Source: Cenarchaeum sp.
GTDB taxonomy: Archaea; Thermoproteota; Nitrososphaeria; Nitrososphaerales; Nitrosopumilaceae
Length of the DNA: 64,000 nucleotides
Direction: 5' to 3'
Assembly: GCA_965212015.1 (NCBI GenBank)
Contig: OZ243037.1
Location: 1,056,001-1,120,000 of the forward strand
Shown: positions 3,868-50,029 of the stretch, in pieces
Layout: every line of letters begins with the position of its first letter
Numbering within the stretch: the first letter of the stretch is position 1
Program-made: the position numbers and the translations under genes
The notes under the pieces: model-generated
The model's input: only the letters and a program-made list of their open reading frames with translations
The model's database searches: none
Told to the model about the DNA's origin: nothing

Positions 3868-3869
3868 GG

Positions 3870-8130: not shown

Positions 8131-8182
8131 GGTACCGGACGAATTCGATAAAAAGCTATGCCGCCGCACGTGCCGGAAAAAA

Positions 8183-8256
8183 TGGGATTGGCAGGATTTG
8201 AACCTGCGGTCTCTAGCACCCAAAGCTAGAATCATACCAAGCTAGACTACAATCCC
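8183..8256 (-). tRNA. tRNA-Pro(TGG)
   Basis: Reverse complement folds as a cloverleaf: GGGATTG/CAATCCC acceptor stem, CTAGC-TTTGGGT-GCTAG anticodon arm, GGTTCAAATCC T-loop; no intron. Confidence 0.95.
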
Positions 8257-8335
8257 AACGAATCAGCAGGCGCTTACCTCCAATTTAAGCATGACATATG
8301 ATGATTTTAAATAACCAGCGGGCAGAGACGGGACG

Positions 8336-33674: not shown

Positions 33675-34520
33675 TTAGCTCTTTGAATAGTTTTTCTTGT
33701 GCTTTAGGGTATTGTCTATCATGGAGTGGGTCTTGCGCCTTAGATCCATCAAAAACTTTATGAGCTCAATTCTCTCCTTCGGGCTTGCCTTGTGGGCGTC
33801 CTCGATTAGATCGTCAATCCGGGACAGGGTGATTTTTAGGGCGATGCTGGTCTTTCTTATTATGTGATCCGCCTTTGACTTTGCCTCCGGGCGGCCGGGG
33901 GATTTTGTCTTTAGCTGGTTTTTCATTTTTCTTATCTGCCGTATGGTGAGCTTGTTGTCTATGATCCTGTCTACGAACTCTTCTTTGATTGTAGAGTCTA
34001 TGTTTGTAAGCTCTAGTGCCTGACTTATGCTGAGATCATTGTTGGTCACCTTTTCCTTTACGCCTACTGGCAGCTTTAGCAGCTGCATCCTGTGCGAGAT
34101 GTACTCCTCGCTTCTTCCTATTTTGCTGCCCAGATCGCTTATTCCGCCCCACCCAAAGTCCACCACGTACTTTTGGTACGCTTCTGCCTCCTCTATTGGG
34201 TCCATCGTCTTTCGCTGCAGGTTTTCGGTCAGCTGTATCTCAAAGGCGTGCTTGTCTGAGAACTCGCGTATCTTGCAGGGGATGAACCTCCATCTCAGGG
34301 ACTTGCATGCCATGAATCTCCTGTGGCCTGCCACAATTTCAAAGCCGTGCTCTAGCGGCCTTACCACTATGGGCTGGAGCAGGCCGTGCTCCTTTATGCT
34401 CAACTTTAGGTTGATGAGTTCCGGCGAGTTTTTCGGATCGGGATACCTGACAGGCGAGCCTGACGGCCTGATCATCCGCAGCTCTATCGGCTCTGTAAGG
34501 GAGTTGTCATAGACATCCAT
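33675..34520 (-). CDS. ParB/Spo0J-like protein
   Basis: SIKEHGLLQPIVVR, IVAGHRRFMA, ENLQR, HTH. Confidence 0.88.
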   Translation of the reverse strand: MDVYDNSLTEPIELRMIRPSGSPVRYPDPKNSPELINLKLSIKEHGLLQPIVVRPLEHGFEIVAGHRRFMACKSLRWRFIPCKIREFSDKHAFEIQLTENLQRKTMDPIEEAEAYQKYVVDFGWGGISDLGSKIGRSEEYISHRMQLLKLPVGVKEKVTNNDLSISQALELTNIDSTIKEEFVDRIIDNKLTIRQIRKMKNQLKTKSPGRPEAKSKADHIIRKTSIALKITLSRIDDLIEDAHKASPKERIELIKFLMDLRRKTHSMIDNTLKHKKNYSKS

Positions 34521-35384
34521 ATTACCCAATAAACAACGGTGGGATGGTATTTATCAATTATGTAGGGATTCAGTTTCTGCATGCCGGACTTGCGCCTCAA
34601 ATGATACGCTTTTTGACATACGAGTGGTGAGAGGACTGCCTGCTCAAATGACTCCTGTACGGCGTCAGGTATGCGTCTCTGCACTGATTGATCGCCTTTA
34701 TTGTATCAAGGCCGGAATATGCCACCGGCATATGCGTCATATCCGATGCTATGGCGTGACCTCGTGCCGTATGGCAATCTTGCCTGGGCATCTCTTGCTG
34801 ATCCCATTCAGGCCCTGCCTGTGCCTATTCAAAGAATCATGCCGTATGCCAGACGTGCCGAACATCTGCCGGCAGATTACGCAAAACGAATTTATTAACA
34901 ATAAAAAAACAAAAAAATCACTATGCCAAAACCATGGAAGTCAATTCCAAGCTCTGCGTTGCGTTCACTAGGGGCAAGGGCCAGGTACAACCGCAACCCT
35001 GACATGCACGAGGCTGCAAAGGAATTTAGCGAGATATTAGGGAAGCGATTCTCCAAAAAAATACACACCACAGAGGATTCCATCCGATATATTTTTTTTC
35101 ACAGCATGATGAGCAAAATGAAATACGGGCCAAACGACATCATGCTGGAATATCCCCATCCTGCCATACGCAGGGCCAGAATAGACACTTTTATCCATCA
35201 AAATTCTACATATCCTGCAACCGCACTGGAATTCAAATTCCACAGGGCATATCATGGCAAGACCATGGCTCCGATACCACAGCATGCCGAATCGCTTTTC
35301 AAGGACATATTTAGGCTGGTTCGTCTGCAAAAAATCATGCCGGGAACTGATTGTTATCTGGTCTATGTGACGGATCATATAATA

Positions 35385-36759
35385 GAGGTGATGCATAATT
35401 GACTAAATTTAAGACTATATTCAACCAACAACTTTAGATCGCACGTGTATGCCGCACATATCTGATGACAGAATCCAAGGATCAGATCATATACAGGCAA
35501 CAGCAAGTGATCAAAAGTCTGGAGAAAAAACTCTACAAGGAAGACGATCTGTGGTATGCTGACGAGAATGCGGACAGGCGTAACAAGCCGAAAAAGTCAA
35601 AAATCATGCACAGGTGCGAGTTGCTTGACGAGTTTATCGCCAATCCGACCATGCTATATCACACTACAAAAAAGAATCCCAAACAGTTCAATTACATCCT
35701 GGAAAAATTCACGCGCAAGGTCAAGGCCGATCCGGACGCCCCCTTGTTTTCAGATGACAGATTCTATCCCGGAAACAGGTGCAAGCTGCACATTCGGCAC
35801 GTACTGCTGTTGATAATGATGAAAGAAAAGCTTGGCATATCCCAGTACGAGCTCATGCCGATATTCGGGGTGGATCAGAGCACGATATCGCGATATCTAG
35901 AATTTGCCAGAACAATATTGTTGGAGATTCTTCCGACTGCAGAAAAAATCGCCAAAAAGATACAGAATGCAAAAAGTATCGAGGAGATAAAACATCTGGT
36001 TCCGGGCAGCAACGGGGGCGAGCTGTACATAGACGGCACGCACACGCCCATAGAGCGGCCGTCAGATCCTGATGCCAGCAAGGATTACTATTCCGGCAAT
36101 AAAAAAAAGCACACGCTAAACACCACCATAGTGGCTAATCGCGACAAGCTGGTTATTACGACAGGAAAACCTGTGCCGGGATCGATGCAAGATCTCAAGA
36201 TGTTCCAATATAACAACATCAATCTCGGACCGTTGAGCAAGAGCATGAAAGACAAGAATGCGGCAAAAAAGGACAAAGTTACGGTATACGTGGACAAGGG
36301 ATACCAGGCCATCGAGGGAGATCTGCCCGGCGCCAACGTCCAAAAGCCCACCAAAAAACCAAAATGCGCCGAGCTAAACAGCACACAAAAAAATGAAAAC
36401 AGAAGAATCAGCAACATTAGAATAAAAGTAGAGCACGCCATAAGGCTTCTAAAGCTGTACAAAGTATTGATTCATCTGTATGTCGGCACTGATGCGGAAT
36501 TTTACAGGGATTTACAAGTGGTGACGGGTCTTGCAAACTTTGATCTGCTGTGGGATGAGCGACGGGAACGTCTCAAGTACGGATTTTGATCATACAATAC
36601 GGGGCGCCTGAAGCGCTGTATTTTTGCGCATGATTTTGTGAAATTGTGTGTTTTTTGTGTGTTACAGACCGTACTTTGTCATGTTTTGTAACTTAACGCG
36701 TGTTGATCATGTGCCAGTTCTGTAAAGACGTCATGAGTTGATCGATTACGCATCACATC
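35385..36759 (+). mobile_element. IS5-family (ISL2-like) insertion sequence
   Basis: Imperfect IRs GAGGTGATGCATAATTGA / TCGATTACGCATCACATC; TA on both flanks; transposase inside. Confidence 0.88.
35465..36589 (+). CDS. DDE transposase (HTH + DDE_Tnp_4-like)
   Basis: FGVDQSTISR HTH, IDGT, YYSGNKKKH, VDKGY, RIKVEHAI. Confidence 0.9.
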   Translation: MTESKDQIIYRQQQVIKSLEKKLYKEDDLWYADENADRRNKPKKSKIMHRCELLDEFIANPTMLYHTTKKNPKQFNYILEKFTRKVKADPDAPLFSDDRFYPGNRCKLHIRHVLLLIMMKEKLGISQYELMPIFGVDQSTISRYLEFARTILLEILPTAEKIAKKIQNAKSIEEIKHLVPGSNGGELYIDGTHTPIERPSDPDASKDYYSGNKKKHTLNTTIVANRDKLVITTGKPVPGSMQDLKMFQYNNINLGPLSKSMKDKNAAKKDKVTVYVDKGYQAIEGDLPGANVQKPTKKPKCAELNSTQKNENRRISNIRIKVEHAIRLLKLYKVLIHLYVGTDAEFYRDLQVVTGLANFDLLWDERRERLKYGF

Positions 36760-37169
36760 TAATGATGAAGTATTATCATAGTTTAAGCGACAGTACGGAA
36801 AAATTTTTCGATAACAAAAAAACCATGACGAACCATAAATTTGTCAAATCAGGCGATGTAATCGAATCAGACGATGTAATCGAATGCAACACTAAATTGA
36901 TCCTAAAGCAGGATGGAAAATACCATGTTGTTCGAGTTTATCGTATATTGCCATGAACTATCCGATGTTTGATCCGGGATTATCGGGTGTTTTGGTCTCG
37001 GGAATGATTTGAGCATCATTTAGCAGATATCTATAATTCGTGCATTATCTTGTTCTTGTAGCCAGACATCAAGCAAATGCGGTGATCATGCCTGATCTAA
37101 ACCTACTGATTGAAAATGTTTGTGGGTATTGTCAATACGCATAGAGCCCAATGGAAGAATGGTGGAGAC

Positions 37170-37326
37170 GGGCAAAATACGACCTGATGGTGTCCGAATA
37201 TTACAAGACATTTGATGAGATGAAATATTCACTGTGCGAGTATTTCAGGACAAAGTATTCGTTAGATGTGATGAAATATTTCATGAGTGTTATGACGGTT
37301 TCAAATTATTTATGTGTTTGACTATA
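37170..37326 (+). repeat. IS630-like 3' end remnant; direct repeat of ~57914-58068
   Basis: ~150 bp of near-identical sequence ending TTTGACTATA. Confidence 0.75.
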
Positions 37327-37602
37327 GACGGCCGCATACAATCTCATAGCTTTTGAGTCTACCGAGAAACATATGAGGTGACAATGTTTGCCTGAGAATC
37401 ATTCAAATCAAATTACGCTGCTTCCAAAAGCTATAATCGTTATAATTGGATGGGATAACACATTTCCACATTTTAAAGGCTTACGTTAGTTACAGGAGGC
37501 ACAAGCATGGTATGGAGTAGGCAGGTTTTTCTATGTTTGATGTGAAAATCATCTTGTAATGAATTATATTTCAAGATTTAACTATCTCATCTATCATGAT
37601 CT

Positions 37603-38256
37603 TTACCATATTTTTTTAATTCTCTTGGATCTATCACATTTGTCCACCCTAATAACATATTTCTTAATATCAACAACACCATAATCGATTGCCAGCTCTA
37701 CTATTGCATTTTCCCTTCTTTTTTTCTTATATTCCTGAAATGGATAATCATCTATGGATTGAAAAGTTTGTCTACCTCGTATCCCTCTCTTGTAGTAGGT
37801 AGCGCCTGAATTAATTTTAGACAATGTGACTTTATCTTTGTATTTTTTAACTAGTTTTTCAGTATCTACAGTAAGTACATCATGAGCTTTATCTCTATAT
37901 GCCCGTGCGTTCAATAAAGTTTCCAATTTTTTTTTTCTGACCCAAAAAAACACCTTACCATTAAGCAATCGATAGAATTGTCGTGGAGTTATGTTAACTA
38001 GAAGATCAAGTAATTTTTTTTCAGATAGTGGTTTTTGATCTCGTATTACTGCTTTACCATATCTTTTATTGTAAATATCCACGCTTGACGGCCTAATACA
38101 TGACTCTATTGTAAATCGTTTTTTTCCGTGAATATTGTATAGATCTAACAGTGCAGTAGTGCTTAAAAGACCATGTTTCTGTATACTTGGCCAACTTTTT
38201 AATTCTGCCATATGATACAAATATGGATAATTTTCGACCAGTTCATTAATCTTCAA
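37603..38256 (-). CDS. DarT-like ADP-ribosyltransferase-fold protein (DUF7002-type)
   Basis: YLYHMAELKSWPSIQKHGLLS matches the DarT-type N-terminal motif; VFFW strand; C-terminal VEL (candidate catalytic Glu). Confidence 0.7.
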   Translation of the reverse strand: MKINELVENYPYLYHMAELKSWPSIQKHGLLSTTALLDLYNIHGKKRFTIESCIRPSSVDIYNKRYGKAVIRDQKPLSEKKLLDLLVNITPRQFYRLLNGKVFFWVRKKKLETLLNARAYRDKAHDVLTVDTEKLVKKYKDKVTLSKINSGATYYKRGIRGRQTFQSIDDYPFQEYKKKRRENAIVELAIDYGVVDIKKYVIRVDKCDRSKRIKKIW

Positions 38257-38262
38257 TATGTC

Positions 38263-39843
38263 CTACCATTTCCTTCTGTCTATTATGCTTCTTGAATTAA
38301 AACCTGTTGAGATTAGAGAAACATCTGATTTTGTAACCTGTTCTATCTCTTCTATCATATTGATGGCTTCTTGTGTTAGTTGTTCAAAACGATGTGCTGA
38401 TCTGTTAGTAATTGATATATAATCTACAAAAGTTAAAGCAATATCAGTCACTCTGTTGAGTAATGCTGATTTTTTAATCAGATCCCAATCAAATTCTCCG
38501 ATTCTTCTGGGTTTATTAGTTGTGGAAGTCATCTCTGTTTTTTTAATTTCATTTTCACTTATTCCTGATCGATCGCTTATATCTTTAAATTTTAACTCTT
38601 TGGACATTCGTCCGGACGTACTTCCAAGTGGATCTTGAACACGAATTGGATAAGTTCTGACCACCATAATTATTTTTCTTACCAAAAGCGGTGAAATTCC
38701 CGCATCTGCCAAACATCCTGAAACTGTAGTCTCTCTTGATGTCACATGTGGATATTCACCATGATGAATACTCAATCCAGTTCCTTGAGTACCTTCCAAC
38801 AAAATTTTCCCATTATTTGCAATCGTCTCTTCCAATACTTCAATTGCTGGCTTGATGTATGGTTTTAATTCTTTGATCATTTTTGCTAATTTTACATTCG
38901 TATCACGCAATATTTTACGGGAAGTTGCACTACCAACCCCACTTCCTGTTGAACCTATTCTATCTACAAGTTTTTTTTCTTTTTCTACATCATTTGATTC
39001 TATAATCATTGCTTGTGGATCAATTTTTAATCTTTCATAACTCACACCATTATCTGCAATTTCCTTTTGTAAATTTTTAACATTTATTACCATTCCAGGG
39101 CCAAGCAAAAGCTTGGCGTTACTTTTCGTAGTGCCTGATGGCAAATGGTGATGTGTAATCGGTGGATCTCCGAATACTTTATGCCCTGCATTTGGCCCGC
39201 CAACCCTTACTATAAGATCATATTCTTTGGAAATATGTGCTGCGATTTGGCCTTTGCCTTCACTTCCGTACTGTCCACCAACTAATACATCTACACATTT
39301 TGGCGTATTGGTGTTATATAAGGACAGATGGCTGATGGCACGAATTAATATATCTGTTTTCGTACATCTGTTGGTATCAATTACGATATCTGCAATATCT
39401 GCCAATGATTCTATGTCTTTTTCAGTTTTGTTTTGCCTTACTTTATCATATGAAGGCATGTTTTTTACTGTCTTGTATTTTTTAGAATATCTTCGTTCAA
39501 GCTCGTTCGTTGGAGCAGTAAGATGAAGATGAATTATCGGACCAAATGATTGCCTGATCCCATAAATTTGTTTTTTAATTCTAACTGAATCTACTACAAA
39601 GATTGTTTTTTTATCATTTTTATTAATTGCATCTTGTAATTCATCTCTAACCCATGTCCCATTTGTATTCCTATCTAATTTGTCGCCCTTTTTTTGTAAA
39701 GATAATCTATCCGAGGAGGCCAAATTCTTTGCTTCTAATATGTTACGAGTTTTTACTATGTGTGTATTGAATTTTTCGGAAATGTTTTCTGCGAGTCCAG
39801 TTTTTCCAGAGCATATAGATCCGGATATAACGACAATCTTCAC
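38263..39843 (-). CDS. P-loop nucleotide kinase fused to PurZ-like adenylosuccinate synthetase paralog
   Basis: N-terminal GSICSGKT and VVDSVR; C-terminal GGQYGSEGKG, GGPNAGH, GSTGSGVG, EGTQG, YPHVTSR, RTYPIRV, TTNKPRR, TFVD. Confidence 0.85.
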   Translation of the reverse strand: MKIVVISGSICSGKTGLAENISEKFNTHIVKTRNILEAKNLASSDRLSLQKKGDKLDRNTNGTWVRDELQDAINKNDKKTIFVVDSVRIKKQIYGIRQSFGPIIHLHLTAPTNELERRYSKKYKTVKNMPSYDKVRQNKTEKDIESLADIADIVIDTNRCTKTDILIRAISHLSLYNTNTPKCVDVLVGGQYGSEGKGQIAAHISKEYDLIVRVGGPNAGHKVFGDPPITHHHLPSGTTKSNAKLLLGPGMVINVKNLQKEIADNGVSYERLKIDPQAMIIESNDVEKEKKLVDRIGSTGSGVGSATSRKILRDTNVKLAKMIKELKPYIKPAIEVLEETIANNGKILLEGTQGTGLSIHHGEYPHVTSRETTVSGCLADAGISPLLVRKIIMVVRTYPIRVQDPLGSTSGRMSKELKFKDISDRSGISENEIKKTEMTSTTNKPRRIGEFDWDLIKKSALLNRVTDIALTFVDYISITNRSAHRFEQLTQEAINMIEEIEQVTKSDVSLISTGFNSRSIIDRRKW

Positions 39844-39855
39844 AACAAGACCATC

Positions 39856-41220
39856 TCACAATCCATCCTGCACATAGTCCAAGATATTCTGATCCGTTCT
39901 TGATTTTTCCTTGTTGGGTAGATCATACACTGTTACTTTAACGCCCTCCCTTATCAAATATTCGTCAATCAAACTGCTAATAATTTTCCAATCGCCGCCT
40001 GCAAAGCCAGTGCCAATACGAGGCATATGGACTGTCGCATCATTTTTCTTGGCTTCCAATGCGACTAGCTCAAGACATGAGGCCAAATGTTGATACCGAA
40101 TCTTTGGACGAGTAGATTCAGCGTATCCACGCTGTGCAATCATGCTGCAAATTAACAATTGATCAGAGATTTTAAACAAATGTAATTTTCCAAGCCTTAG
40201 ATTATTCCGTTTCTCGGCCCATCTCACAAACTCTTTGCGTAATGCTGGCCATTTCTTAGAAATCATTAATCCAAATCCTTTTCCCCATCTTTTGCTTTTA
40301 TCATTCACAATATGTACAATGATTTTATCTGCTGATCCATGTGGATCAGTAGCATCACCACTAAGATATATTATTCCTTGAGGCTCATATTTTGATGGTT
40401 GTTTTAATTTAATGATACAAAGCACCCTTGGATATATGCTGTTATGAGAAGGGAATACCCCTATGCATTCGACATCTAATTTGGGATATTTCTGAAAGAG
40501 TTTTTCCTTACGTTTTGACGTGTATCCAATGGCGCTACATTCGGATAAAACACTTTTTGAAGATATCTTTAAACCAGCATAAAATGACAATGTTGAACTG
40601 GATGAACTGACTACATATTCTATTCTGTACAAGGAATTTTCTTCGTCATTTATTTTGGCAGCTGAAAACATAGCAACAGGCATACTAGTTTGATTTATTA
40701 GCTGTAATAAAACTGCCTCGGCGGAAACATCATATTTATTTCTGATTCTAATGACATTTTCCATTGTAACTGGAATTTCTTTTGGATTGACAAGTGATCC
40801 TACAGGCATAAGAATCTCGGCAGCTGATCTATTGCACAATAATTCAATCTGCCAGTCGTCTATACGTTTATGTTTGCCTGATCTGTTATGTATTGATTTT
40901 TCATAGTCAGGAAACAACGTGTGTGCTATTTCATGAGCCAATGAAAATCTAATCCGTCTTCTTGATCTATGTGGATTGTATTCGATTCTTGGATTAATTC
41001 CATCTGGGATTATTCGAGCATCTGGAATATCTTCGTTTGAGGTCACTTGAATTGCCAAATATTTTGCCAACCACATTGGATCGTATGGGGGGCCTCCCCA
41101 ACCGTCATCCATGGCTTTGAGAAGCATCTGCTTCGTTTTTTCAACAATAATTTTGATCGGATCATCTTTTCCTGCTAGCTTCTTTACTGATGGATTTGTC
41201 CATTCGATTTTTTCACGCAT
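39856..41220 (-). CDS. IrrE/ImmA (M78) metallopeptidase fused to ALC1-class macrodomain
   Basis: RFSLAHEIAH, ELLCNRSAAEILMP; C-terminal GDAT, HIVND..WGKGF, SMIAQ, MPRIGTGFAGGDW. Confidence 0.88.
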   Translation of the reverse strand: MREKIEWTNPSVKKLAGKDDPIKIIVEKTKQMLLKAMDDGWGGPPYDPMWLAKYLAIQVTSNEDIPDARIIPDGINPRIEYNPHRSRRRIRFSLAHEIAHTLFPDYEKSIHNRSGKHKRIDDWQIELLCNRSAAEILMPVGSLVNPKEIPVTMENVIRIRNKYDVSAEAVLLQLINQTSMPVAMFSAAKINDEENSLYRIEYVVSSSSSTLSFYAGLKISSKSVLSECSAIGYTSKRKEKLFQKYPKLDVECIGVFPSHNSIYPRVLCIIKLKQPSKYEPQGIIYLSGDATDPHGSADKIIVHIVNDKSKRWGKGFGLMISKKWPALRKEFVRWAEKRNNLRLGKLHLFKISDQLLICSMIAQRGYAESTRPKIRYQHLASCLELVALEAKKNDATVHMPRIGTGFAGGDWKIISSLIDEYLIREGVKVTVYDLPNKEKSRTDQNILDYVQDGL

Positions 41221-41490
41221 ATATGATCTCTAGGCATTTTTTATTATGATCAAAAGTTATAAGTTTATCTATAGCCGGGTGCTGTGAAGTTGGTGGGTGC
41301 TTTATATACTGATTTTCTCCCAATTCCCCCGCACTTGGCAACGCCTCAAAAATTACAAGGACACAGAGTCGGGATTATCGTAACAGGTTCTGGTCATTGA
41401 GAGAGTGTGCGCGGGGATGATCTCGGACCATTTTCAACACGAAAATCCAATCTAAAAGCCTCATAAGGGGGAGCCATCCAACTAGCTAAA

Positions 41491-42267
41491 ATGAACCGGG
41501 ACGAACTGATGGAAAAGGCAGAAGAGTACGCCATGCACGAGCATTTTGAGCGGGAAGTAGCCTGCTATGACCAGATACTGCAGGCAGATCCGAACGATGT
41601 AGAGGCCCTGGCAAATAAGGGCATGGCGTACTGGAACGCTGAAAGATATGACGAGGCAATAAAATTCTATGAAAAAGTGGTAGAGCTTGAACCTAACAAT
41701 TCCGATTACTGGGAATACATGGGCAGGGTAACGTCCTGCAGCGACTCTATCGAAAAGGCAAAAAAATACGAGAGGGTCCTAGAGTGCTATGAAAAATCAT
41801 TAAAAATAGACCCGGAAAATACCGCCACTTTGCAGTCAAAGCATGATGCCATGAGAATTCTGGACAGAAATGAGGATGCACTTGAATGTATCAGCCGGGC
41901 CATAGAGCTGGATCCGGATAATGCGGAATACTGGACTGAGAAGATTGAACTGTTGGGCGAGATGGAACGCGACGATGAGGGATTATTATGCACCGGAAAA
42001 GCCCTCCAGATAGAGGAACATCAGGAAAAGCCATGCTACGGCCGCATGCTGTTTTACCGCCGCAGATACGACGAGTCGATTGCCAGCCTCAAAAAGGAAA
42101 TTGTGCAGAAACCGTATGATGACTATCTACATGCGTTTTTGGGGATGGTGTACAGTCATACGGGAAAAAAGGAGGACGCCCTGGCGTGCTTTGAAAGATC
42201 GCTCAAACTTAACCCGGATTCACTTGCGGTGGAATTTAAAAACAAGTTTTATCCGGGTACGGTTTAA
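41491..42267 (+). CDS. tetratricopeptide repeat protein
   Basis: Repeated A..CY...L..DP.N units. Confidence 0.88.
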   Translation: MNRDELMEKAEEYAMHEHFEREVACYDQILQADPNDVEALANKGMAYWNAERYDEAIKFYEKVVELEPNNSDYWEYMGRVTSCSDSIEKAKKYERVLECYEKSLKIDPENTATLQSKHDAMRILDRNEDALECISRAIELDPDNAEYWTEKIELLGEMERDDEGLLCTGKALQIEEHQEKPCYGRMLFYRRRYDESIASLKKEIVQKPYDDYLHAFLGMVYSHTGKKEDALACFERSLKLNPDSLAVEFKNKFYPGTV

Positions 42268-43044
42268 ATTACATCCTATGTGATACCCGTTGGAACCGGT
42301 TAACACCAAACCCGATTTCCCTTTCGGATTGAGGGGTGGTTCCATGTATTTTTCCTGCAAATGCGAGAAATTATATGAAAGAGAGTGCTGGGAGATGGTG
42401 CGATTGTATGGGGGAAACCCCCTTTAATGCAATTCGTCGTGATCAGTACTTTGTGGAAAGTGCACACCTTTGGGAGGGCGCCACCCATCCCAGGTGGGTT
42501 TATTCATCATTTGGTTGTATTTTACAACCAAAAAACATAAAAACGGAAAGATTCAAGGACTCATAGTCAGCCGCGTTGTCATCATTGACTGTACATCTCT
42601 GATGACCGCTCCACGCGGTCTTTATTTCAATCATCGTCTTTCTTGCAAGCATATTTATCAATTATTCACTCAAAAAATTATAAAGGAGGCTGTTTCTTAA
42701 CATGCGTGCAAATCGCCAAACCTTGTGTGCAGCACGTCACTAGACGGGGTGCACGGGCGGGAAATGATGCAGGGCACCGGATACAGGTGTGATCCCGCGC
42801 CACAATTTTAAACCGGCATTCAAATCTATAATTCTGGACAAAATATTCAAAAATTAAAATATGGTGAAGCATACGTAAAGTGGGGGGCAGCGAATGTCAC
42901 GGCTGTGTATTGGCGGCGGACGCGCCGTCGATCCCCCTTGCTTTAGTTATTTTTTCTGTATTTTGAGGTCATTGAGTGATTTTTTTGAGGATTTGAATCG
43001 ATATGATTTTATATTCTTATCAACCATTAATTATATTCAACAAA

Positions 43045-43755
43045 TTATTTTCTATCTAATAACATTTTTTTGATATATTCGGAAACATGCATCTTGTGTT
43101 TATCAGCATTTTTTAAAATATTATCATAATTCCGAGTTTCTTTATCTTGCCACATTATATCTGCACGTCGCATATTCATCATGGCGACATGTTCATATTT
43201 TTTTGGACAACTCCAATAGCATTTACGACAAGTAGATTGTATTTTTAATTTATAATTGTCACAGTTTTGACAGCTCCATCCTTTTGCTCTGTTACATGAT
43301 GCACATAATAACATAAAATTTTTAGGATCTCTATCTATTTGATCACCTAAAATTATAAATGGAATTCGATGATCAATTTGTAAATAACGATCAGTTAATT
43401 TAACATTACATATGGCACATATACATAATGTAGATATTTTTTGTTTGAAATTTTTTGGAAATGGCACACGCCCTCCTCGCGCACGAATTTTTTTTATTGT
43501 GGTTAGAGTATATCGTGCATGTTTTGATGAACCATAAATCATTTGTGAATCTATTGGAATTCCACAGTCTTTTAAATCTCTAATTGCACGAGGCGAATGC
43601 TTATACTTATATACATCACTTAAAATTTTAGTTGTTACATAGCCATATTTTAATATATATTTTAAAGCAGTTTCTGCACGTTTTGATAACTTTTTTACAT
43701 TATATTTTTTTAATAATTTTTGAAATTTTTGATCAACTTTCTTGTCTTGTTTCAT
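43045..43755 (-). CDS. HNH endonuclease, probable type II restriction enzyme
   Basis: CAIC...QIDHRIP...LCASCNRAK plus extra Cys pairs; immediately downstream of the MTase. Confidence 0.8.
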   Translation of the reverse strand: MKQDKKVDQKFQKLLKKYNVKKLSKRAETALKYILKYGYVTTKILSDVYKYKHSPRAIRDLKDCGIPIDSQMIYGSSKHARYTLTTIKKIRARGGRVPFPKNFKQKISTLCICAICNVKLTDRYLQIDHRIPFIILGDQIDRDPKNFMLLCASCNRAKGWSCQNCDNYKLKIQSTCRKCYWSCPKKYEHVAMMNMRRADIMWQDKETRNYDNILKNADKHKMHVSEYIKKMLLDRK

Positions 43756-43762
43756 TTTTATT

Positions 43763-44686
43763 TCATAAATATGGTGATAGATATAATGATTCCATAGTAT
43801 TGATTTTTTTTCCTAACAAGGTAGACTGTGTTGATCTTCCGGCATTTATAATGATTTGCTTAAGTTGTAAATGCTTTGGCATTGTTTTCCCATGAATTTT
43901 TCTTCCAGTTTTTCCATCATAAGATAAAATAAACGGTATTTTTTTTTCATTTAATATCGAAAGTTGTTCACAGAATTCCTCATGAGAGAACATTCCTTTA
44001 TACCTTTTACTTGATCCTCCACATGTTCCTTGATATGGCGGATCCATATAAAGCAGATCGTTTCTAGTACATTCTTCAAAAATTTTTTTATAATCAAAAG
44101 ATGTAAGATGACATTTTTTATGTAATATTTTATGTGCTGTCATTATGCGACGCTTCATTTCATTTGGTTTGGCACCAACTCTTCGATTATCACAAGAATT
44201 ATTGAAATTTCCATCATTATTATAACGTACAGCTGCCTTTACACATCTAGCCAATAAATATAAAAAATCAGCAGGATCATGTTTTTGATTAAATCTATCA
44301 CGAATTTTATTATAAAATTCATGTTCTGAACCAAGTTGTTTGTGCCAAAGTCTTGAATATTTAGACGACAATATTTCGGGATTTTCTAAAATTTCCTTCC
44401 ATAAATCAATTAATGGTGCATTAGAATCATTAACCCATACAGATTTTATTCCCGTGTTCACAAGAGCATGTATGGATATGGCCGCTGATCCTGCAAAAGG
44501 TTCTATTAGATGATTTAATTTATATGGAAAAAAACTCAATATTTCATTAGCGATTTTTCGTTTACTGCCTTGATATGGCATTATTTGCTCAATTAATTGA
44601 AAAGAATACATATCCGATTTTTTTAAATTAATTTTTTTTTGTGTCGAAAGTTGGGTCATTTGAATTTTTTGTGTCGTTACACTCAT
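43763..44686 (-). CDS. Dam/D12-class DNA adenine methyltransferase
   Basis: YQGSKR, EPFAGS, YMDPPY, ILSY. Confidence 0.92.
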   Translation of the reverse strand: MSVTTQKIQMTQLSTQKKINLKKSDMYSFQLIEQIMPYQGSKRKIANEILSFFPYKLNHLIEPFAGSAAISIHALVNTGIKSVWVNDSNAPLIDLWKEILENPEILSSKYSRLWHKQLGSEHEFYNKIRDRFNQKHDPADFLYLLARCVKAAVRYNNDGNFNNSCDNRRVGAKPNEMKRRIMTAHKILHKKCHLTSFDYKKIFEECTRNDLLYMDPPYQGTCGGSSKRYKGMFSHEEFCEQLSILNEKKIPFILSYDGKTGRKIHGKTMPKHLQLKQIIINAGRSTQSTLLGKKINTMESLYLSPYL

Positions 44687-44868
44687 ATTTTAGCATCCCA
44701 TTTTTTAATGATAAGATCTCCATTTTTTTCATTCACACGCCAAATCAACACATCATGAGGACCCAAATCATAATCTCTGACAATCTCTTTCGGGATGGTG
44801 GTCCTAAGCGATTCTGACGTATTGGCTCTGGCCACCTTTGTAAGAAACGGCATTACTGGTTTTGACAT
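44683..44868 (-). CDS. AbrB/MazE/SpoVT-type small DNA-binding protein
   Basis: SLRTTIPKEIVRDYDLGPHDVLIW; divergent from the transposase, 4-bp overlap with the MTase. Confidence 0.75.
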   Translation of the reverse strand: MSKPVMPFLTKVARANTSESLRTTIPKEIVRDYDLGPHDVLIWRVNEKNGDLIIKKWDAKI

Positions 44869-44957
44869 GTCCCTAGTAAAATGCAATGTTATTTAAAGGT
44901 ATTACCTCAAATTGCTATTAGGTAATGTATATATAGGGATTACCTTTTAGGTAATAC

Positions 44958-46142
44958 ATGAAACAAACCAAAAGAAACCAAAAAGGAAAAAAATCACAGC
45001 ATCTACAATCCGGCAGAACAAGCCGCGCAGCACAGGCAAAAAAGATGCAAGAGGACGGCCTGCAGATATCGCAGTTTGCCACGGACAAGTTCCGCGTGCC
45101 GTCCCAGACCACACAGGACAAGTCATACGTGGTGTCTCGGACCGGACACGGCCTGGTCTGCGAATGCCCGGATCACAAGTATACTCATTCAGACTGCAAA
45201 CACATCAAACGAGTCCTACAAGTAGTAAAAAAGAACGGCGGATACGCCAACAATACGTTCAGAATAATGGACAGATCATCATTCTCGCTGTGTCCATACT
45301 GCGATTCCGGCGACATTAAAAAGAACGGCCGCCACACGCTCAAATCCGGCGAAAAAACCCAGAGGTTCAAGTGTAATGATTGCAAGAAAAGATTCCAGGC
45401 CAATTTCGGCTTTGAGGGAATGAAAAACGATCCGAAGATCATCACCCGGGCGCTGCAGATGCAAAACTCAAAGATGAGCTGCCGCAGGATAGCCGACTGT
45501 ATGAGAATGGAGGGCATTGACGTCTCGTATCGCGCCGTATTTGACTGGATTACAAAGTATTCCAAAATGCTGGAAAGATACACGGACGGTATTATTCCGC
45601 GTACTGCAAACAGGTTTTCCATACGGGCAGACGAGATTTTCATAAGGTTTTCTGGAATACCACACTGGATGTATGCAAGTATAGAGGATGATTCCAGGTA
45701 CTGGCTGTCATACGAGGTGGGCAAAAGCAAGTTCCAGCACGATACCGACCGCTTTATCCGGGCCACATATGCCGCCCTGGGAAGATATCCCACCCGCTTT
45801 ACCACCGATGGCCTGCCTTCGTATGGAAAGTCCGCAAGACGGGTACTGGGAAGACACACCCACCACATCAGTGCCATACACATGTCAGGCGACATGAACA
45901 ACAATATGATGGAGAGATTCAACGAGGAGGTAAGGGGAAGAGAAAAAGTCTGCTGGGGCCTCAAGAAACCGGACACCCCGGTACTTGCCCTGTACAAGAC
46001 ATACTATAACTTTGCCAAAAGCCACGGCGGGCTTGACGGCAGGACGCCTGCGGAGGCGGCATCAATACTGGTGGAGGGCAGAAACGTGTGGATGACCCTC
46101 ATACAGAATGCCAGGCTGTTTGAGATGGCGGGGGAAGTGTAA
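44958..46142 (+). CDS. IS6-family DDE transposase with SWIM and zinc-ribbon domains
   Basis: CECPD..CKH SWIM, CPYC..CNDC, ADE, TTDG, NNMMERFN, YYNF..H..L.GRTPAE. Confidence 0.88.
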   Translation: MKQTKRNQKGKKSQHLQSGRTSRAAQAKKMQEDGLQISQFATDKFRVPSQTTQDKSYVVSRTGHGLVCECPDHKYTHSDCKHIKRVLQVVKKNGGYANNTFRIMDRSSFSLCPYCDSGDIKKNGRHTLKSGEKTQRFKCNDCKKRFQANFGFEGMKNDPKIITRALQMQNSKMSCRRIADCMRMEGIDVSYRAVFDWITKYSKMLERYTDGIIPRTANRFSIRADEIFIRFSGIPHWMYASIEDDSRYWLSYEVGKSKFQHDTDRFIRATYAALGRYPTRFTTDGLPSYGKSARRVLGRHTHHISAIHMSGDMNNNMMERFNEEVRGREKVCWGLKKPDTPVLALYKTYYNFAKSHGGLDGRTPAEAASILVEGRNVWMTLIQNARLFEMAGEV

Positions 46143-46732
46143 TGTATCCGCACGAAAAACTGTTTGCATCCGGAATGGATCTTGTAGTGCAGTTAAAATT
46201 CGCCGAGGCCATACCAAAATTTGAGGCCGTTCTGGAGACACACCCCGACTATCACATGGCACGCTCAAACATGGGACTTTGCATTGCACGACTGGAAAAA
46301 TTTGACGAGGCACTGGAATGCTTTGACCATATACTGAAAAAAGATCCAAAATTTTCCATGGCATATGGCCACAAGATACTTGTCCTGGATGATATGGGCA
46401 GGAAGGAAGAGGCCGACAGATTGTATGACAAACTATACGAGATGGATTCGGAACACCCGTTTTGTCTGCGTAATGAGGGTTTAATTGCGCTAAAGGAAGG
46501 CCGTGAAAAAGATGCGGATAAGCTCTTTTCCAAGCTTCTTGACAAAGCCCCAGAATGGCAGGAAGACGTCAAAAGTTACATAGACGAATACGTGGGGGAA
46601 AGCGTGCATGCAGCCGGCAAGTGCAGGTTTTGCAGGAAGGAAAAACCCGTAAAGACTTACCAGATGAGATACGGCCAGGTAAAATACTGCGACAAATGTG
46701 TTCGGATACTGGGGCTGACTGGAACGGTGTGA
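46142..46732 (+). CDS. TPR protein with C-terminal zinc ribbon
   Basis: TPR-like repeats followed by CRFC...CDKC; coupled to the transposase stop. Confidence 0.8.
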   Translation: MYPHEKLFASGMDLVVQLKFAEAIPKFEAVLETHPDYHMARSNMGLCIARLEKFDEALECFDHILKKDPKFSMAYGHKILVLDDMGRKEEADRLYDKLYEMDSEHPFCLRNEGLIALKEGREKDADKLFSKLLDKAPEWQEDVKSYIDEYVGESVHAAGKCRFCRKEKPVKTYQMRYGQVKYCDKCVRILGLTGTV

Positions 46733-46902
46733 CCGGGCCGGCGTACGCCGATTCTATCAATCTATTCGATTTTTTAATTTTTAGAACAGGTTTGGATTAT
46801 ACCAGATGATCTATTCTGATGAAATCTACAAAGTCGTGTCGGGCAATCGGGAGAAGATCAGTATATAAAGCACCCACCAACTTCACAGCACCCTATAGCC
46901 GT

Positions 46903-47460
46903 GGCGTTGTCCACTAATTCCTCCCAAAATACGGCGTAATGCTTATAGATCATGAGAATACGGTACCGAAACAGCTATTGATCACGACATATCAGCCCAT
47001 TCAATGACAAATGAAACACCTACACCATACGTCAGGCCCACCGGGTATTCCAGGCAGTATGACCGGAAGCGAAAAAGGGACGGAAAAAAGGCGGCAAGAC
47101 GACTCAACACATTACTATACATAATCAACCGAGTCGTCAAGCCCCGCAAACGAGGACGGCACGATTTTCATCCTGCCGGCATCGTATTCTGTCTGATTCT
47201 CAAGGAAAAGCACAACCTCTCCTTTCGGCAAGTCGTGGCATATCTTGAAAACCATCCGGATATGTTACGTCTTGCCGGATTAAAAAAGGTACCTTCAAAA
47301 TCGACGCTTTGTGCGGCCGCACTGAGGCTGGATAGGACAAAACTGGACAGGATAATGCACCAGCAGTCGCGAAACTACAAAAAGCAGACACTGCTCGGGG
47401 ATGCAACCGGAATCTCTATGAGGACGTTCCAGGACTGGGATGATGCAAAAAGAGGCATCT
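46903..47460 (+). pseudogene. truncated IS5-family transposase
   Basis: Putative end GGCGTTGTCCACTAA; LSFRQ, VPSKSTL, GDATG then loss of homology. Confidence 0.7.
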
Positions 47461-47603
47461 GGGATTGCGATTTTATCCTCTTCACACCCAAATTTTTTCG
47501 AGAGGTAATCTGTTTGTTTGCATTTTTTGCTCCATGGCGGATACCATTTGAACTTCGTTTTCTAGGCACATATGGTTATGCGTTTGGCTATAGATCATGA
47601 ATT

Positions 47604-49658
47604 TTACGTTGAGATCATATCATTTATTTTATTGAAAAGTGTTTCAAAATTTTGGATTAATTCATTTGGTAATAAATTAATATTTGTTTCACTAAATTGT
47701 TTTAAAATTGCACGATTTGGTCTGTTTTTATGAAAATCTCCTAAATTATTTTTTAAGAAAAAATCTTCAATTCGATTTACAATCATCGGTTTCTGAGAAT
47801 CAAGAATAATTTGTGTTATTCTTTCTTTTTGTAATTCATTTTTATAAGTAGATTGAACAAATTGTAAGTAATAATCTTCAGGGAACATATCTTCAATAGA
47901 CATATTTTTTGTTTTATCAAAAATTTCATTTATCATAAAAATTTTTTTATTTTTTACAATTTTTTTCTTTACAATTAATCCATAAGCTTTTTTTCCTTCT
48001 TGATCCGCATCCAATAGAATAGCTACATCTAAATTTTGTGATTTATACATACTAGCAAATAGAATTGATCTCATTGCACCACCGACAGGGACAAATACAA
48101 AATTATCTTTTAAATGTATTTTTCCTGCAGATTCTAATAAACTTGATGCACTACTCAAAAGCCAAAAATCTGTGATGCCTTCGACGATCAAATTATTTTT
48201 GCCAATAAACAGAGATTGCGCCATATTATAATGAAGTGCAGATTGTAATGGAAATAAAGCATCACGATCACTATCCCAAACATCATTTGATATATTAGAT
48301 AATTTTTGTATTCCATTTTCTAATTTTGATTCTTTTAGAGTTACCGTGTGAATAGAATCCGGTTTTTTCATATCCACCATAAAAGGAGAATGTGTTGTGT
48401 ATAAAATCTGATTTTTTTCAGCAAGTGTAGGCAATACATTTTTGAGAAAATCTTCTTGACCTACAGCATGTAAAAATAATGCTGGTTCGTCAAGTAATAA
48501 TATTGCATTTTTATGTTTTTGTTCAGATTCAACATTAAATACAACATAAAAAGAAAAATACCATTGATATCCTCTGCTTCGTTCTTCAAGTTGTAATTTT
48601 GTTTTATCTTTTTTATTAATTACCCAAACACGAAGATTATCTCCCTGTACTGAAAATTCAATATCATGGTCATTTTGTGTCCATATACTATTAATTTCTT
48701 CAGAAACTTTTTTTGATGCATAACTCAAAATCAAATCCAATCTATCTTTATTTTTTTGTACTTGATTATGATCATCTCCGTCTTTACTTAATTCTACTAA
48801 TTCATGTGCATTTAAACTTCCAAGATCTAATAATGTCTTTGCAGTTTTTTCATCCTCATCTAAATCATTATTGTTTATTTTATTTATAAAATTTGATAAA
48901 CGAATTCTACTGTCAATAATTCCAATATTTTCAAAATAAATAAATCTTGGTAATTGTTTTATAAGAAAATTTTTAATTTCTTCAGATGAATCTTCTGTTA
49001 TTTCAGAATTGATTCGATCTAAAAATTGTTGTATGGTGTTTTTATCCAACACTTTATCTGGAATCGTACCAAGTTGATTTTTTAAATTCTTTATATTTTG
49101 CTGTATTTGTTCAAGAATGTGTGGTTGTCTTATATTTAATTCATTTTCAATTCCTTGCGTGATTTTGTTAAATATATCCATTATCGTAGTTTTTAATGCT
49201 TTTCCATTATCGAATGTTTCAGGATCAATAGTGTTAAGGAGTTCGAATATGGATTTCAAATAATTTTTATAAAATACATCAAAATGGATTGCTTCTTGAT
49301 CATAATCTAAATGACATATTAATTTCATGTTTTTCTTTTTACTAAATTTAATTTCATTTAATAATAATTGTTCATTGCTAATTTCATTCACATGTTGTTT
49401 TTCATTATCATCTAATTTGAAAGTAGCAGTAACAAAGATTTCATTTGGATCGAAATGCCCGAAATGCCAGATTGGATTTTCAGTCAGATCATCAAAATCG
49501 GTATCTTCGACGTGATTAATTTTCTTTAAAGCTCGAAGCAAATTTGTTTTTCCACTTTCGTTTATTCCTACAAATGTCGTAATATTCTCATCGATTTTAA
49601 TCTCACCCGAATCTTCGATGGATCGATATTTTTTAACACGAAAACTAGTAAGGCGCAT
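47604..49658 (-). CDS. OLD-family ATP-dependent nuclease (ABC ATPase + TOPRIM)
   Basis: GINESGKT, RSRG, LLLDEPALFLH, TTHSPF, VEGITD, LDAD; very AT-rich. Confidence 0.88.
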   Translation of the reverse strand: MRLTSFRVKKYRSIEDSGEIKIDENITTFVGINESGKTNLLRALKKINHVEDTDFDDLTENPIWHFGHFDPNEIFVTATFKLDDNEKQHVNEISNEQLLLNEIKFSKKKNMKLICHLDYDQEAIHFDVFYKNYLKSIFELLNTIDPETFDNGKALKTTIMDIFNKITQGIENELNIRQPHILEQIQQNIKNLKNQLGTIPDKVLDKNTIQQFLDRINSEITEDSSEEIKNFLIKQLPRFIYFENIGIIDSRIRLSNFINKINNNDLDEDEKTAKTLLDLGSLNAHELVELSKDGDDHNQVQKNKDRLDLILSYASKKVSEEINSIWTQNDHDIEFSVQGDNLRVWVINKKDKTKLQLEERSRGYQWYFSFYVVFNVESEQKHKNAILLLDEPALFLHAVGQEDFLKNVLPTLAEKNQILYTTHSPFMVDMKKPDSIHTVTLKESKLENGIQKLSNISNDVWDSDRDALFPLQSALHYNMAQSLFIGKNNLIVEGITDFWLLSSASSLLESAGKIHLKDNFVFVPVGGAMRSILFASMYKSQNLDVAILLDADQEGKKAYGLIVKKKIVKNKKIFMINEIFDKTKNMSIEDMFPEDYYLQFVQSTYKNELQKERITQIILDSQKPMIVNRIEDFFLKNNLGDFHKNRPNRAILKQFSETNINLLPNELIQNFETLFNKINDMIST

Positions 49659-49703
49659 ATCCTTTCATTTACATATGATCTTTATATGAATTTTGATGTT
49701 AAT

Positions 49704-49736
49704 GCTGCTGTGAAATTGACATTGCTTTATATACTG
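49704..49736 (+). repeat. orphan diverged copy of the IS6-type terminal repeat
   Basis: GCTGCTGTGAAATTGACATTGCTTTATATACTG versus GGTGCTGTGAAGTTGGTGGGTGCTTTATATACTG. Confidence 0.6.
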
Positions 49737-50029
49737 CAAATTTCTTCTATTCATGCCACTTTGATCCTTGCATGACTCTCAAAGATGGCCAAATCAGCCA
49801 CAAACACTCAAAATCACGCCTCAAAAACCACCGTTCCGAGTCTTCGAGTCATCCAATGACCGCTGGAAGCCATCCTTCAGGCCCCAAAACAACCCAAAAA
49901 CGACCTTTCCTAGCCACATTTCACGCCCAAACACACCCTACATCATACCCTACAACTAACGTTAGTCCTCTAAAAAAAATAAAAAAAGGGGAAATGTGTT
50001 GTTTCTAGTCTATACTACGTTGATGTCTA

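Follow-up and report, generated by a model that had tools for sequence, protein, structure and literature searches.

The window examined here is a stretch of 64,000 nucleotides from Cenarchaeum sp. (assembly GCA_965212015.1, contig OZ243037.1, positions 1,056,001 to 1,120,000 of the forward strand), whose genome comprises one contig of 1.76 Mb. On the minus strand of the window lies a compact cassette of three genes in the order M78-macro, kinase-PurZ-like, DUF7002. The middle gene, called gene 2 here, encodes a nucleoside monophosphate (NMP) kinase-like domain joined to a relative of adenylosuccinate synthetase (PurA), and this relative probably falls on the side of the PurA superfamily that holds PurZ and PurZ0, the phage enzymes of 2-aminoadenine (Z) synthesis. 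The cassette and the two domains of gene 2 are laid out as follows.

39856..41220, minus strand: gene 1, M78 zinc peptidase and macro domain, 454 aa (Pfam, PADLOC, and fold)
38263..39843, minus strand: gene 2, kinase-PurZ-like, a single open reading frame (ORF) with a GTG start, 526 aa
39319-39843, minus strand: NMP-kinase-like domain of gene 2, residues 1-175 (Pfam and profile matches)
38263-39297, minus strand: PurZ-type short adenylosuccinate-synthetase-like domain of gene 2, residues ~183-526
37603..38256, minus strand: gene 3, DUF7002, with a DarT-like ADP-ribosyltransferase (ART) fold, 217 aa (Pfam E 1.2e-63)

The stop of gene 1 is 12 nt from the start of gene 2, and the stop of gene 2 is 6 nt from the start of gene 3. 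An earlier sequence-only reading had described gene 2 as a PurA paralogue with the PurZ signature, fused to an N-terminal kinase of ~170 aa. The motifs it named are all located in the translation of 38263-39843: the kinase Walker A motif GSICSGKT (residues 8-15); GGQYGSEGKG (residues 189-198), in which Ser194 takes the position of PurA Asp13; RTYPIRV (residues 396-402); and TFVD, within LTFVDY (residues 470-475), where PurA has TKLD. The kinase was likewise recovered as residues 1-175, with Pfam AAA_18 over residues 4-127 and a full-length profile match to SSO1041/AdkA-like proteins (E 6e-10), adenylate kinases being matched as well; AAA_18 and AAA_33 were found in the kinase domain of 30 of 30 family members. 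The sole PADLOC matches of gene 2, to dCTPase (E 1.1e-4) and VakA (E 2.6e-4), are weak and lie in this kinase part.

Proteins of this build are widespread. A homologue search with gene 2 yielded 6294 proteins at E<=1e-5 among 7998 scored, a total that must include ordinary PurA; among the matches listed, 119 non-self homologues are 479-557 aa long and share 53-65% identity with gene 2 over 91-100% of the query. A 20-row alignment of the family (A1) has a mean column identity of 68%, with both P-loops invariant. At least 597 species genomes, counted as one genome per species, contain a match (597 of the 599 pattern matches listed were confirmed). The counts of loci given below refer to the best 80 of these at least 597 matches, which occupy 79 loci and show 47-64% identity. 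Their archaeal carriers are Nitrosopumilus and other Nitrososphaerota, and Thermoplasmata; the bacterial carriers belong to Dehalococcoidia/Chloroflexota, Acidobacteriota, Planctomycetota, Verrucomicrobiota, Alphaproteobacteria, Myxococcota, Actinomycetota, Gemmatimonadota, and Binatia. Among the 78 homologous ORFs of these loci, the kinase Walker A motif lies within the first 80 residues in 74, and the pattern ALTFxDY is present in 63, the other 15 being unmatched by the regular expression.

Source databases label gene 2 adenylosuccinate synthase, and it matches the Pfam family Adenylsucc_synt with E 9.3e-57. Its top NCBIfam model is that of the archaeal short PurA (NF003295), which it matches at 283 bits, under the curated cut-off of 368; the scores against purA TIGR00184 (200.5 bits, cut-off 395.55) and the PurA model NF002223 (173.8 bits, cut-off 402) also fall short. 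The closest solved sequences are the Pyrococcus PurA structures 5k7x/2d7u (E 1e-48), followed by 7vf6 (phmmer E 3.1e-31), which is PurZ0 of Gordonia phage Archimedes (PMC12884076, NAR 2026).

We aligned the PurA domain of E. coli PurA with 3 further bacterial PurA, 10 archaeal PurA, 17 fused sequences, and 5 phage sequences, namely PurZ of Vibrio phage J2 and Acinetobacter phage Bhz9, the PurZ0-type sequences of the actinophages Pumancara and Hiyaa, and a Bacillus phage homologue. Three of the 20 A1 rows (P0030, P0053, and P0102) were left out to limit the number of rows, as was L106, in which no P-loop was found by pattern. The Asp13 column holds Ser in 17/17 fused rows and in 5/5 phage PurZ/PurZ0-type rows, and Asp in the E. 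coli, the 3 other bacterial, and the archaeal PurA rows. GSEGKG occurs in 78/78 homologous ORFs of the 79 loci and Ser194 is invariant in A1, so the replacement of Asp by Ser is not due to chance. In published sequences, Asp13 is 99% conserved in the PurA clade that contains E. coli (251 sequences), phage PurZ has Ser in 147/147 sequences, and four archaeal PurZ-related sequences, drawn from Tong et al. 2023, have Ser or Gly (PMC12884076).

The PurZ signature proposed for gene 2 extends beyond this residue. The fused family and PurZ/PurZ0 have in common the change of K331 to F/M, YPIRV in place of Y(S/T/V)TRV, an insertion following RV, and the loss of one residue ahead of NAGH. At the same time the alignment shows that the fused family retains K16, N38, H41, T129, Q224, T239, T301, R305, and D333, which gives the synthetase domain an intact-looking set of catalytic residues. 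The Asp of TKLD is kept in the two actinophage rows (TMLD and TMVD) and is Asn in the Vibrio and Acinetobacter PurZ rows. The sequence-only reading had noted the retained Asp and connected it with the use of GTP as in PurZ0; retention as in the actinophage PurZ0-type rows holds, but the connection with GTP is soft because the two sources disagree on nucleotide preference. PurZ0 and PurZ are said to prefer ATP and GTP "respectively" (PMC12884076, section 24), whereas PurZ is described as having shifted to the use of ATP/dATP in the introduction of a preprint (10.1101/2025.10.22.683976). The orders are opposite and one is probably a slip, a discrepancy that matters for how the retained Asp is read. 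In a careful maximum-likelihood tree of 36 rows, the fused and PurZ/PurZ0 sequences are split from archaeal and bacterial PurA with support of 100/99, and the fused clade has 99/98. By these residues, indels, and the split, the PurA-like domain of gene 2 probably lies on the PurZ side of the superfamily.

Gene 2 is an accessory paralogue and not the housekeeping purA. The genome has a second PF00709 gene elsewhere (G000:C1:1406568-1407566), a canonical purA of 332 aa with the P-loop GGFFGDEGKG, so gene 2 is not its sole purA, as the sequence-only reading had anticipated. Among 40 relatives the fused form is found in only one (G007, same genus, E 9.3e-138), and there all three cassette genes are present in the same order; 38 of the 40 have only a PurA-type match of ~340 aa with 34-44% identity, and one has no match. 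A canonical PurA is also present in 5/5 other carriers tested, as a bacterial long form in four (569-614 bits) and as an archaeal short form in one.

The three genes travel together. The strict order M78-macro, kinase-PurZ-like, DUF7002 is found in 62/79 loci, the kinase-PurZ-like gene is directly followed by DUF7002 in 71/79, and the intergenic gaps have medians of 9.5 and -7 nt across loci. When the window proteins serve as BLAST queries, DUF7002 is detected in 64/79 loci and M78-macro in 68/79; transitive clustering raises the former to 77/79 and leaves the latter at 68/79. The genes that flank the cassette vary from locus to locus. In P0122, on a contig of 375 kb and representing a cluster of 7 member sequences, the kinase, PurZ-like, and DUF7002 parts form one polypeptide of 752 aa, joined with a linker of ~5 residues. 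The cassette is a tightly packed, horizontally mobile unit present in many bacterial and archaeal phyla. One Gagatemarchaeum metagenome-assembled genome (L009:5992-11366) has two convergent kinase-PurZ-like copies, one followed by DUF7002 and the other preceded by M78-macro.

Three Dehalococcoidia loci (L010, L012, and L013) have a variant cassette without M78-macro. In these, DUF7002 and a 267-aa protein are divergent from the kinase-PurZ-like gene, which is followed by a 274-aa protein and a protein of the DCD/dUTPase superfamily. The 267-aa family occurs in 14/79 loci, with conserved GDxxDxxKYxLLR ... FFDPDNG, and the DCD/dUTPase-superfamily protein in 6. Pfam, NCBIfam, and PADLOC gave no match for the 267-aa and 274-aa proteins, which in the protein atlas fall in "hypothetical protein" clusters only. 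A dUTPase-like DutZ, which produces dNMPs, is reported for every PurZ0 phage (PMC12884076), and by analogy the DCD/dUTPase-like gene of the variant is possibly a parallel to DutZ. In three other Dehalococcoidia loci (L008, L011, and L051) purB directly adjoins the cassette, in three different arrangements. We considered and rejected the idea that this purB is a dedicated lyase: it is the only ASL_C match in two of the three genomes and is therefore probably housekeeping.

The partner proteins point to ADP-ribose chemistry. A model of DUF7002 built with 32 sequences (predicted local distance difference test score, pLDDT, 95) has an ADP-ribosyltransferase fold, for which the best Foldseek match is E. 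coli C7 DarT1 with NAD+ (8baq, E 5.5e-4). VIA-align superposed it on DarT1 with Z 10.9 and a root-mean-square deviation of 3.3 over 159 aligned residues, on Thermosipho DarTG (7omu) with Z 9.7, and on Tpt1 with Z 8.9 (97 residues). H15, R47, R55, R72, N99, F103-F104-W105, N149, and E187 are invariant in the 32 sequences. Pfam at E<=0.01 found no family on gene 3 besides DUF7002, and hence no DarT (DUF4433) match; the PADLOC and NCBIfam scans found no match for it. The substrate of the DUF7002 ART would probably be DNA or a nucleotide.

The product of gene 1 consists of an M78 peptidase of the IrrE/PprI/CapP kind with HEIAH at residues 96-100, a sensor-like middle, and a C-terminal macro domain at ~290-435. 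Pfam reports Peptidase_M78 (E 1.7e-9) and Macro (E 9.5e-4), PADLOC reports capP (E 8.6e-17) and DarG (E 1e-7), and the score against NCBIfam antitoxin_DarG is 29.8 bits with a cut-off of 250. H96, E97, H100, N306-D307, and G403/G405 show no or almost no variation across 33 sequences. In the model (pLDDT 88.4), Foldseek relates the N-terminal part to PprI/IrrE (8slm/3dte, ~5e-11, including the single-stranded DNA complex 8sln) and to CapP (7t5t, 3.2e-8), and the macro part to 2afc (E 1.8e-16, 42% identity), SCO6735 (5e3b), TARG1, Poa1p, and DarG; the macro fold is closer to 2afc and SCO6735 than to DarG. A predicted complex of M78-macro with DUF7002 scored 0.00, 0.34, and 0.00, which is evidence for neither side.

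Relatives of gene 2 are also encoded in phages, at 63 IMG/VR loci. The kinase-fused form is found on eight IMG/VR contigs (those of L115-L120, L122, and L121/L127), three of which also encode DUF7002 and two M78-macro. The other four annotated full-length fused phage loci (L115, L117, L120, and L122) have a different context. In L115 (5189-9578) and L120 (3792-12075) the kinase-fused PurZ-like gene is near a family-A DNA polymerase, and L120 encodes in addition a dNMP kinase, an NT5C nucleotidase, and another kinase. In L117 (2144-7134) and L122 (1020-3378) it is near a fusion protein of nucleoside 2-deoxyribosyltransferase-like (NDT-like) and MazG-like parts, which in L122 lies directly downstream. 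PolA, MazG-type, and NDT-type enzymes accompany PurZ in Z phages (PMC12884076), and these four loci are possibly variants, so far undescribed, of the Z-DNA cluster, with a PurZ that includes the kinase step. In a quick tree of 59 rows all kinase-fused forms make one clade (Shimodaira-Hasegawa approximate likelihood ratio test 99); these phage forms are basal in it and the cassette forms are nested inside.

The surroundings of the cassette are those of a mobile region. GC content drops from ~0.54 to 0.30-0.42 between ~36 and 50 kb of the window, reaching 0.30 at 48-50 kb, and the following features were found at or within this low-GC island.

33675-34529: ParB-like protein, at the low-GC island
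35465..36589, plus strand: DDE_Tnp_4 transposase, at the island edge (Pfam)
43045-43755, minus strand: HNH restriction enzyme of a type II restriction-modification pair (Pfam HNH; PADLOC REase_II E 9.7e-49)
43763-44686, minus strand: D12-class N6-adenine methyltransferase (Pfam MethyltransfD12; PADLOC MTase_II E 6.1e-71)
44958-46142 and 47004-47600: insertion-sequence-type genes in the island (Pfam)
47604..49658, minus strand: OLD-family nuclease, outside the cassette (Pfam AAA_15 E 2.3e-24, Toprim, OLD-like_TOPRIM)

The island also encodes a tetratricopeptide repeat protein, and its three insertion-sequence-type genes include an IS240/IS66-type transposase and a DUF772 transposase fragment. 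No tRNA lies at the low-GC island edges, the sole tRNA of the window being at 8182-8257. With these genes, the region from 34000 to 50000 of the window looks like a defence island. We scanned the flanks of the 79 loci through 116 of the 150 directly flanking proteins, 34 having been left out as annotated or clustered earlier. Clear restriction-modification, abortive infection, toxin-antitoxin, Shedu, or CBASS (cyclic-oligonucleotide-based antiphage signalling) flanks occur in 12/79 loci (L007, L018, L019, L021, L025, L028, L033, L041, L042, L060, L068, and L072), a descriptive count made without a background control. Looser defence-linked flanks (HNH, DUF3375, HerA, KAP, ResIII helicase, and IetA-like ATPases) occur in 11 more. 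In L007, the closest Nitrosopumilus locus, the ORF called directly upstream of the cassette (3273-3869) encodes a Cap15-type CBASS effector with a cyclic dinucleotide receptor and transmembrane helices.

We tentatively propose, as a reading somewhat short of an even chance, that gene 2 is a PurZ-type synthetase that converts (d)GMP to succino-2-aminoadenylate and, with its kinase, forms the nucleotide-converting arm of a mobile conflict cassette. The synthetase domain would phosphorylate a guanine nucleotide at O6, with dGMP or GMP the likeliest substrate, at the expense of GTP or ATP, and L-aspartate would replace the phosphorylated O6 to give N6-succino-2-amino-(deoxy)adenylate. Host PurB would then convert the succino product to a Z nucleotide, and the fused kinase would raise a monophosphate of this route to the diphosphate, as host GMP kinase does for Z phages. 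PurB and host GMP kinase act after PurZ in phages (10.1101/2025.10.22.683976, introduction), and the suggestion of the sequence-only reading that the kinase phosphorylates what the synthetase uses or makes fits this need for host GMP kinase after PurZ and PurB. As an effector, gene 2 once unleashed would deplete guanine nucleotides and flood the pool with non-canonical 2-aminopurine or succino nucleotides, and the altered pool would hinder replication of the invading virus or of the cell itself, in abortive infection or addiction. The DarT-like ART may be a second effector or may act on the product of gene 2, the macro domain may erase the mark made by the ART, and the IrrE/CapP-like peptidase may act as a switch that responds to infection or to DNA damage.

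Several observations weigh against this proposal. The score of gene 2 against the PurZ model NF038379 is 199.1 bits, under the NCBIfam cut-off of 300, and the PurA-like domain shares only 27-36% identity with phage PurZ. The phylogeny with PurA, PurZ, and PurZ0 that had been suggested for gene 2 bears the grouping out in part only: the 36-row tree joins the fused family to PurZ/PurZ0, but in the 59-row tree the link of the fused clade to PurZ as opposed to PurA has a support of just 17, and both trees carried long-branch warnings. Preference for ribo- or deoxynucleotides, the phosphate donor, and the substrate of the kinase are not readable from sequence. A scan of the ORFs from 33 to 54 kb of the window found no datZ, mazZ, or dpoZ-like gene, as the sequence-only reading had observed, so full Z substitution is not to be expected. 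No helix-turn-helix repressor ORF is present in the window operon or its 270-nt upstream spacer; such repressors are what peptidases of the IrrE/CapP type usually cut. PADLOC v2 holds no model for kinase-PurZ-like or DUF7002 proteins, housekeeping genes adjoin the cassette at many loci, and the count of defence flanks has no background control. Finally, the constant pairing with the ART, including the fusion, suggests that both enzymes act on one molecule, which a model of pure pool poisoning does not require.

That pairing and the P0122 fusion keep a joint small-molecule product in play, and an unlikely but serious alternative is that the cassette is a factory for a signal or metabolite, in which one small molecule passes from the kinase-PurZ-like enzyme to the ART. 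With NAD+ as donor, the ART would attach ADP-ribose (ADPR) to the succinyl carboxylate, the 2-amino group, or a phosphate of a succino-purine nucleotide, the macro domain would bind or hydrolyse the product, and the M78 peptidase would deliver the response, as in messenger-based immunity. Here the kinase-PurZ-like and DUF7002 genes are the constant core, adjacent in 71/79 loci and fused in P0122, and the third gene varies, being M78-macro in 68/79 and the 267-/274-aa proteins with a DCD/dUTPase-like one in some Dehalococcoidia loci. The macro domain belongs to the TARG1/SCO6735/Poa1p group, and the three invariant DUF7002 arginines beside H15 fit a phosphate-bearing substrate. Small molecules (Arr) as well as phosphates (Tpt1) are among the targets of ART-fold enzymes, and in type II Thoeris macro domains sense ADPR-derived signals. 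The Pseudomonas version of the operon contains a NUDIX protein (PMC12522546), and macro and NUDIX proteins both process ADP-ribose compounds. No known system, however, makes such a molecule; the closest folds to DUF7002, DarT1 and DarT, modify DNA and not small molecules; a macro domain that binds is indistinguishable from one that hydrolyses; and no separate infection sensor is evident. If instead DUF7002 ADP-ribosylated DNA or RNA as a toxin and the macro protein were its antitoxin, the cassette would be a DarTG-like toxin-antitoxin or addiction module, with the kinase-PurZ-like enzyme only supporting it by rebalancing purine or NAD-related pools, or serving as a second, independent toxin. 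We regard this second main rival as slightly less likely still. The DarT-like fold and the DarG/TARG1-class macro domain do resemble the DarTG pair of writer and eraser, the distribution is mobile and patchy, and a DNA target, with a regulatory link to purine synthesis, has been predicted for the Lmac_3114 family (PMC12522546). But 11/79 loci lack the macro gene, whereas the PurZ-like gene remains beside the ART, and from a toxin-antitoxin core one would expect the opposite; the PurZ-like enzyme is strongly conserved (mean column identity 68%) and in P0122 is fused to the ART; and an enzyme that merely balanced pools would not need the PurZ-specific set of residues.

Two further explanations place gene 2 in known pathways, and both seem to us very improbable or worse. 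The enzyme could supply dZTP for the DNA of an integrated virus or element, as part of a Z-genome pathway; we give this a very small chance. Basal fused members do occur among phage genes for replication and nucleotide metabolism, together with family-A polymerases or NDT-MazG proteins, and three IMG/VR contigs carry the cellular type of cassette. The island of the window, by contrast, has no virion, polymerase, datZ, or mazZ genes, the cassette occurs in unrelated chromosomal contexts across the 79 loci, and an ART with a peptidase-macro protein is in no Z cluster described in the sections consulted of PMC12884076. The preference of the sequence-only reading for a role in conflict or signalling over Z-genome synthesis gains support from the operon, whose conserved partners are a DarT-like ART and a peptidase-macro protein, and from its place in an apparent defence island. 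That gene 2 is an ordinary second adenylosuccinate synthetase, converting IMP to adenylosuccinate with an adenylate-kinase-like domain for the supply of AMP and ADP, is the least credible of all. The annotation as adenylosuccinate synthase, the archaeal PurA model as the top NCBIfam match, and the retention of most ligand-binding residues speak for it; against it, the catalytic base Asp13 is Ser in 78/78 members and Asp in 99% of the PurA clade with E. coli (PMC12884076), every PurA model scores below its cut-off, the enzyme is always a second copy beside a canonical purA in the 6 genomes tested, and its context is that of a mobile, low-GC cassette.

A bolder extension of the proposed PurZ-type conversion, to which we attach little credence, is that cells have domesticated a phage Z-base enzyme, making Z or succino-Z nucleotides on infection that the DarT-like transferase then ADP-ribosylates, either free or in DNA. 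The macro-peptidase protein could then be the reader of a new ADPR-purine immune messenger, or the outcome could be an attack on viral DNA of the kind "mark with Z, then block by ADP-ribosylation". If true, cells would for the first time be seen to use the 2-aminoadenine pathway, and nucleotide immunity would gain a new class.

In the literature we found, natural synthesis of Z is described only for phages, as a way to escape host nucleases, and no function was found for the cassette, including for DUF7002 and adenylosuccinate synthetase in defence. Already in print are the neighbourhood of ART and adenylosuccinate synthetase (AdSS) genes (PMC12522546) and a few archaeal PurZ-related sequences (PMC12884076). 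Our searches did not turn up the kinase-PurZ identity, the M78-macro gene, the range over both bacteria and archaea, the kinase-fused relatives in phages, or a proposal of defence. Here hundreds of species, bacterial and archaeal, carry as an extra chromosomal copy an enzyme that probably belongs to the PurZ branch. If it has kept PurZ chemistry, cells would themselves produce nucleotides of the Z or succino-purine type, probably to serve as a weapon or a signal, which would be a new branch of nucleotide-based immunity, and gene 2 would offer a compact bifunctional enzyme for the production of Z nucleotides. The findings also bear on the origin of PurZ, because the phage kinase-fused forms are basal to the cellular clade, and they give DUF7002, the Lmac_3114 ART family, a testable role.

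Parts of the cassette resemble several known systems, each with clear differences. The Lmac_3114 ART-like family, from a survey of Legionella (PMC12522546, BMC Genomics 2025), has the Hxx, FFW, and xxE motifs and the DarT/Tpt1 resemblance of DUF7002, and we equate the two by motifs and description and not by sequences. An adenylosuccinate synthetase domain is found in 60% of its neighbourhoods, and an AAA, AdSS, and NUDIX operon is reported from Pseudomonas aeruginosa; a loose regulatory link to purine synthesis was proposed. Lmac_3114 is described as found only in bacteria, whereas the DUF7002 of the cassette is also in archaea, and the parts of PMC12522546 consulted make no mention of the Ser-for-Asp change, kinship with PurZ, the identity of the kinase, M78-macro, or phage relatives. 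PurZ and PurZ0 (6FM1, 7ODX, and 7VF6) share with gene 2 the short archaeal-type PurA fold and Ser at the Asp13 position, but gene 2 has an N-terminal NMP-kinase-like domain and stands in cellular chromosomes, where its operon partners are an ART and a peptidase-macro gene and datZ, mazZ, and dpoZ are lacking. As in DarTG (DarT1-NADAR and DarT2-DarG), an ART of DarT fold is encoded with a macro domain that is probably of DarG/TARG1 class; unlike in DarTG, the Y motif is replaced by FFW in DUF7002, the macro domain is joined to a peptidase of the IrrE/CapP kind and not to the DarG C-terminal domain, and the constant partner of the ART is the PurZ-like enzyme. Gene 1 has the M78 peptidase, invariant HExxH, and PprI/IrrE and CapP fold of the IrrE/PprI-DdrO and CapP-CapH systems, from which it differs in its fusion to a macro domain and in having no helix-turn-helix repressor gene beside it in the window. 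Defensive dCTP deaminases such as AvcD carry a kinase-like N-terminal domain on a nucleotide-depleting enzyme. The kinase part of gene 2 weakly matches the PADLOC dCTPase model (E 1.1e-4, profile positions 156-329 of 630), and in gene 2 this type of architecture is completed not by a deaminase, as in AvcD, but by a PurZ-like ligase as the converting domain.

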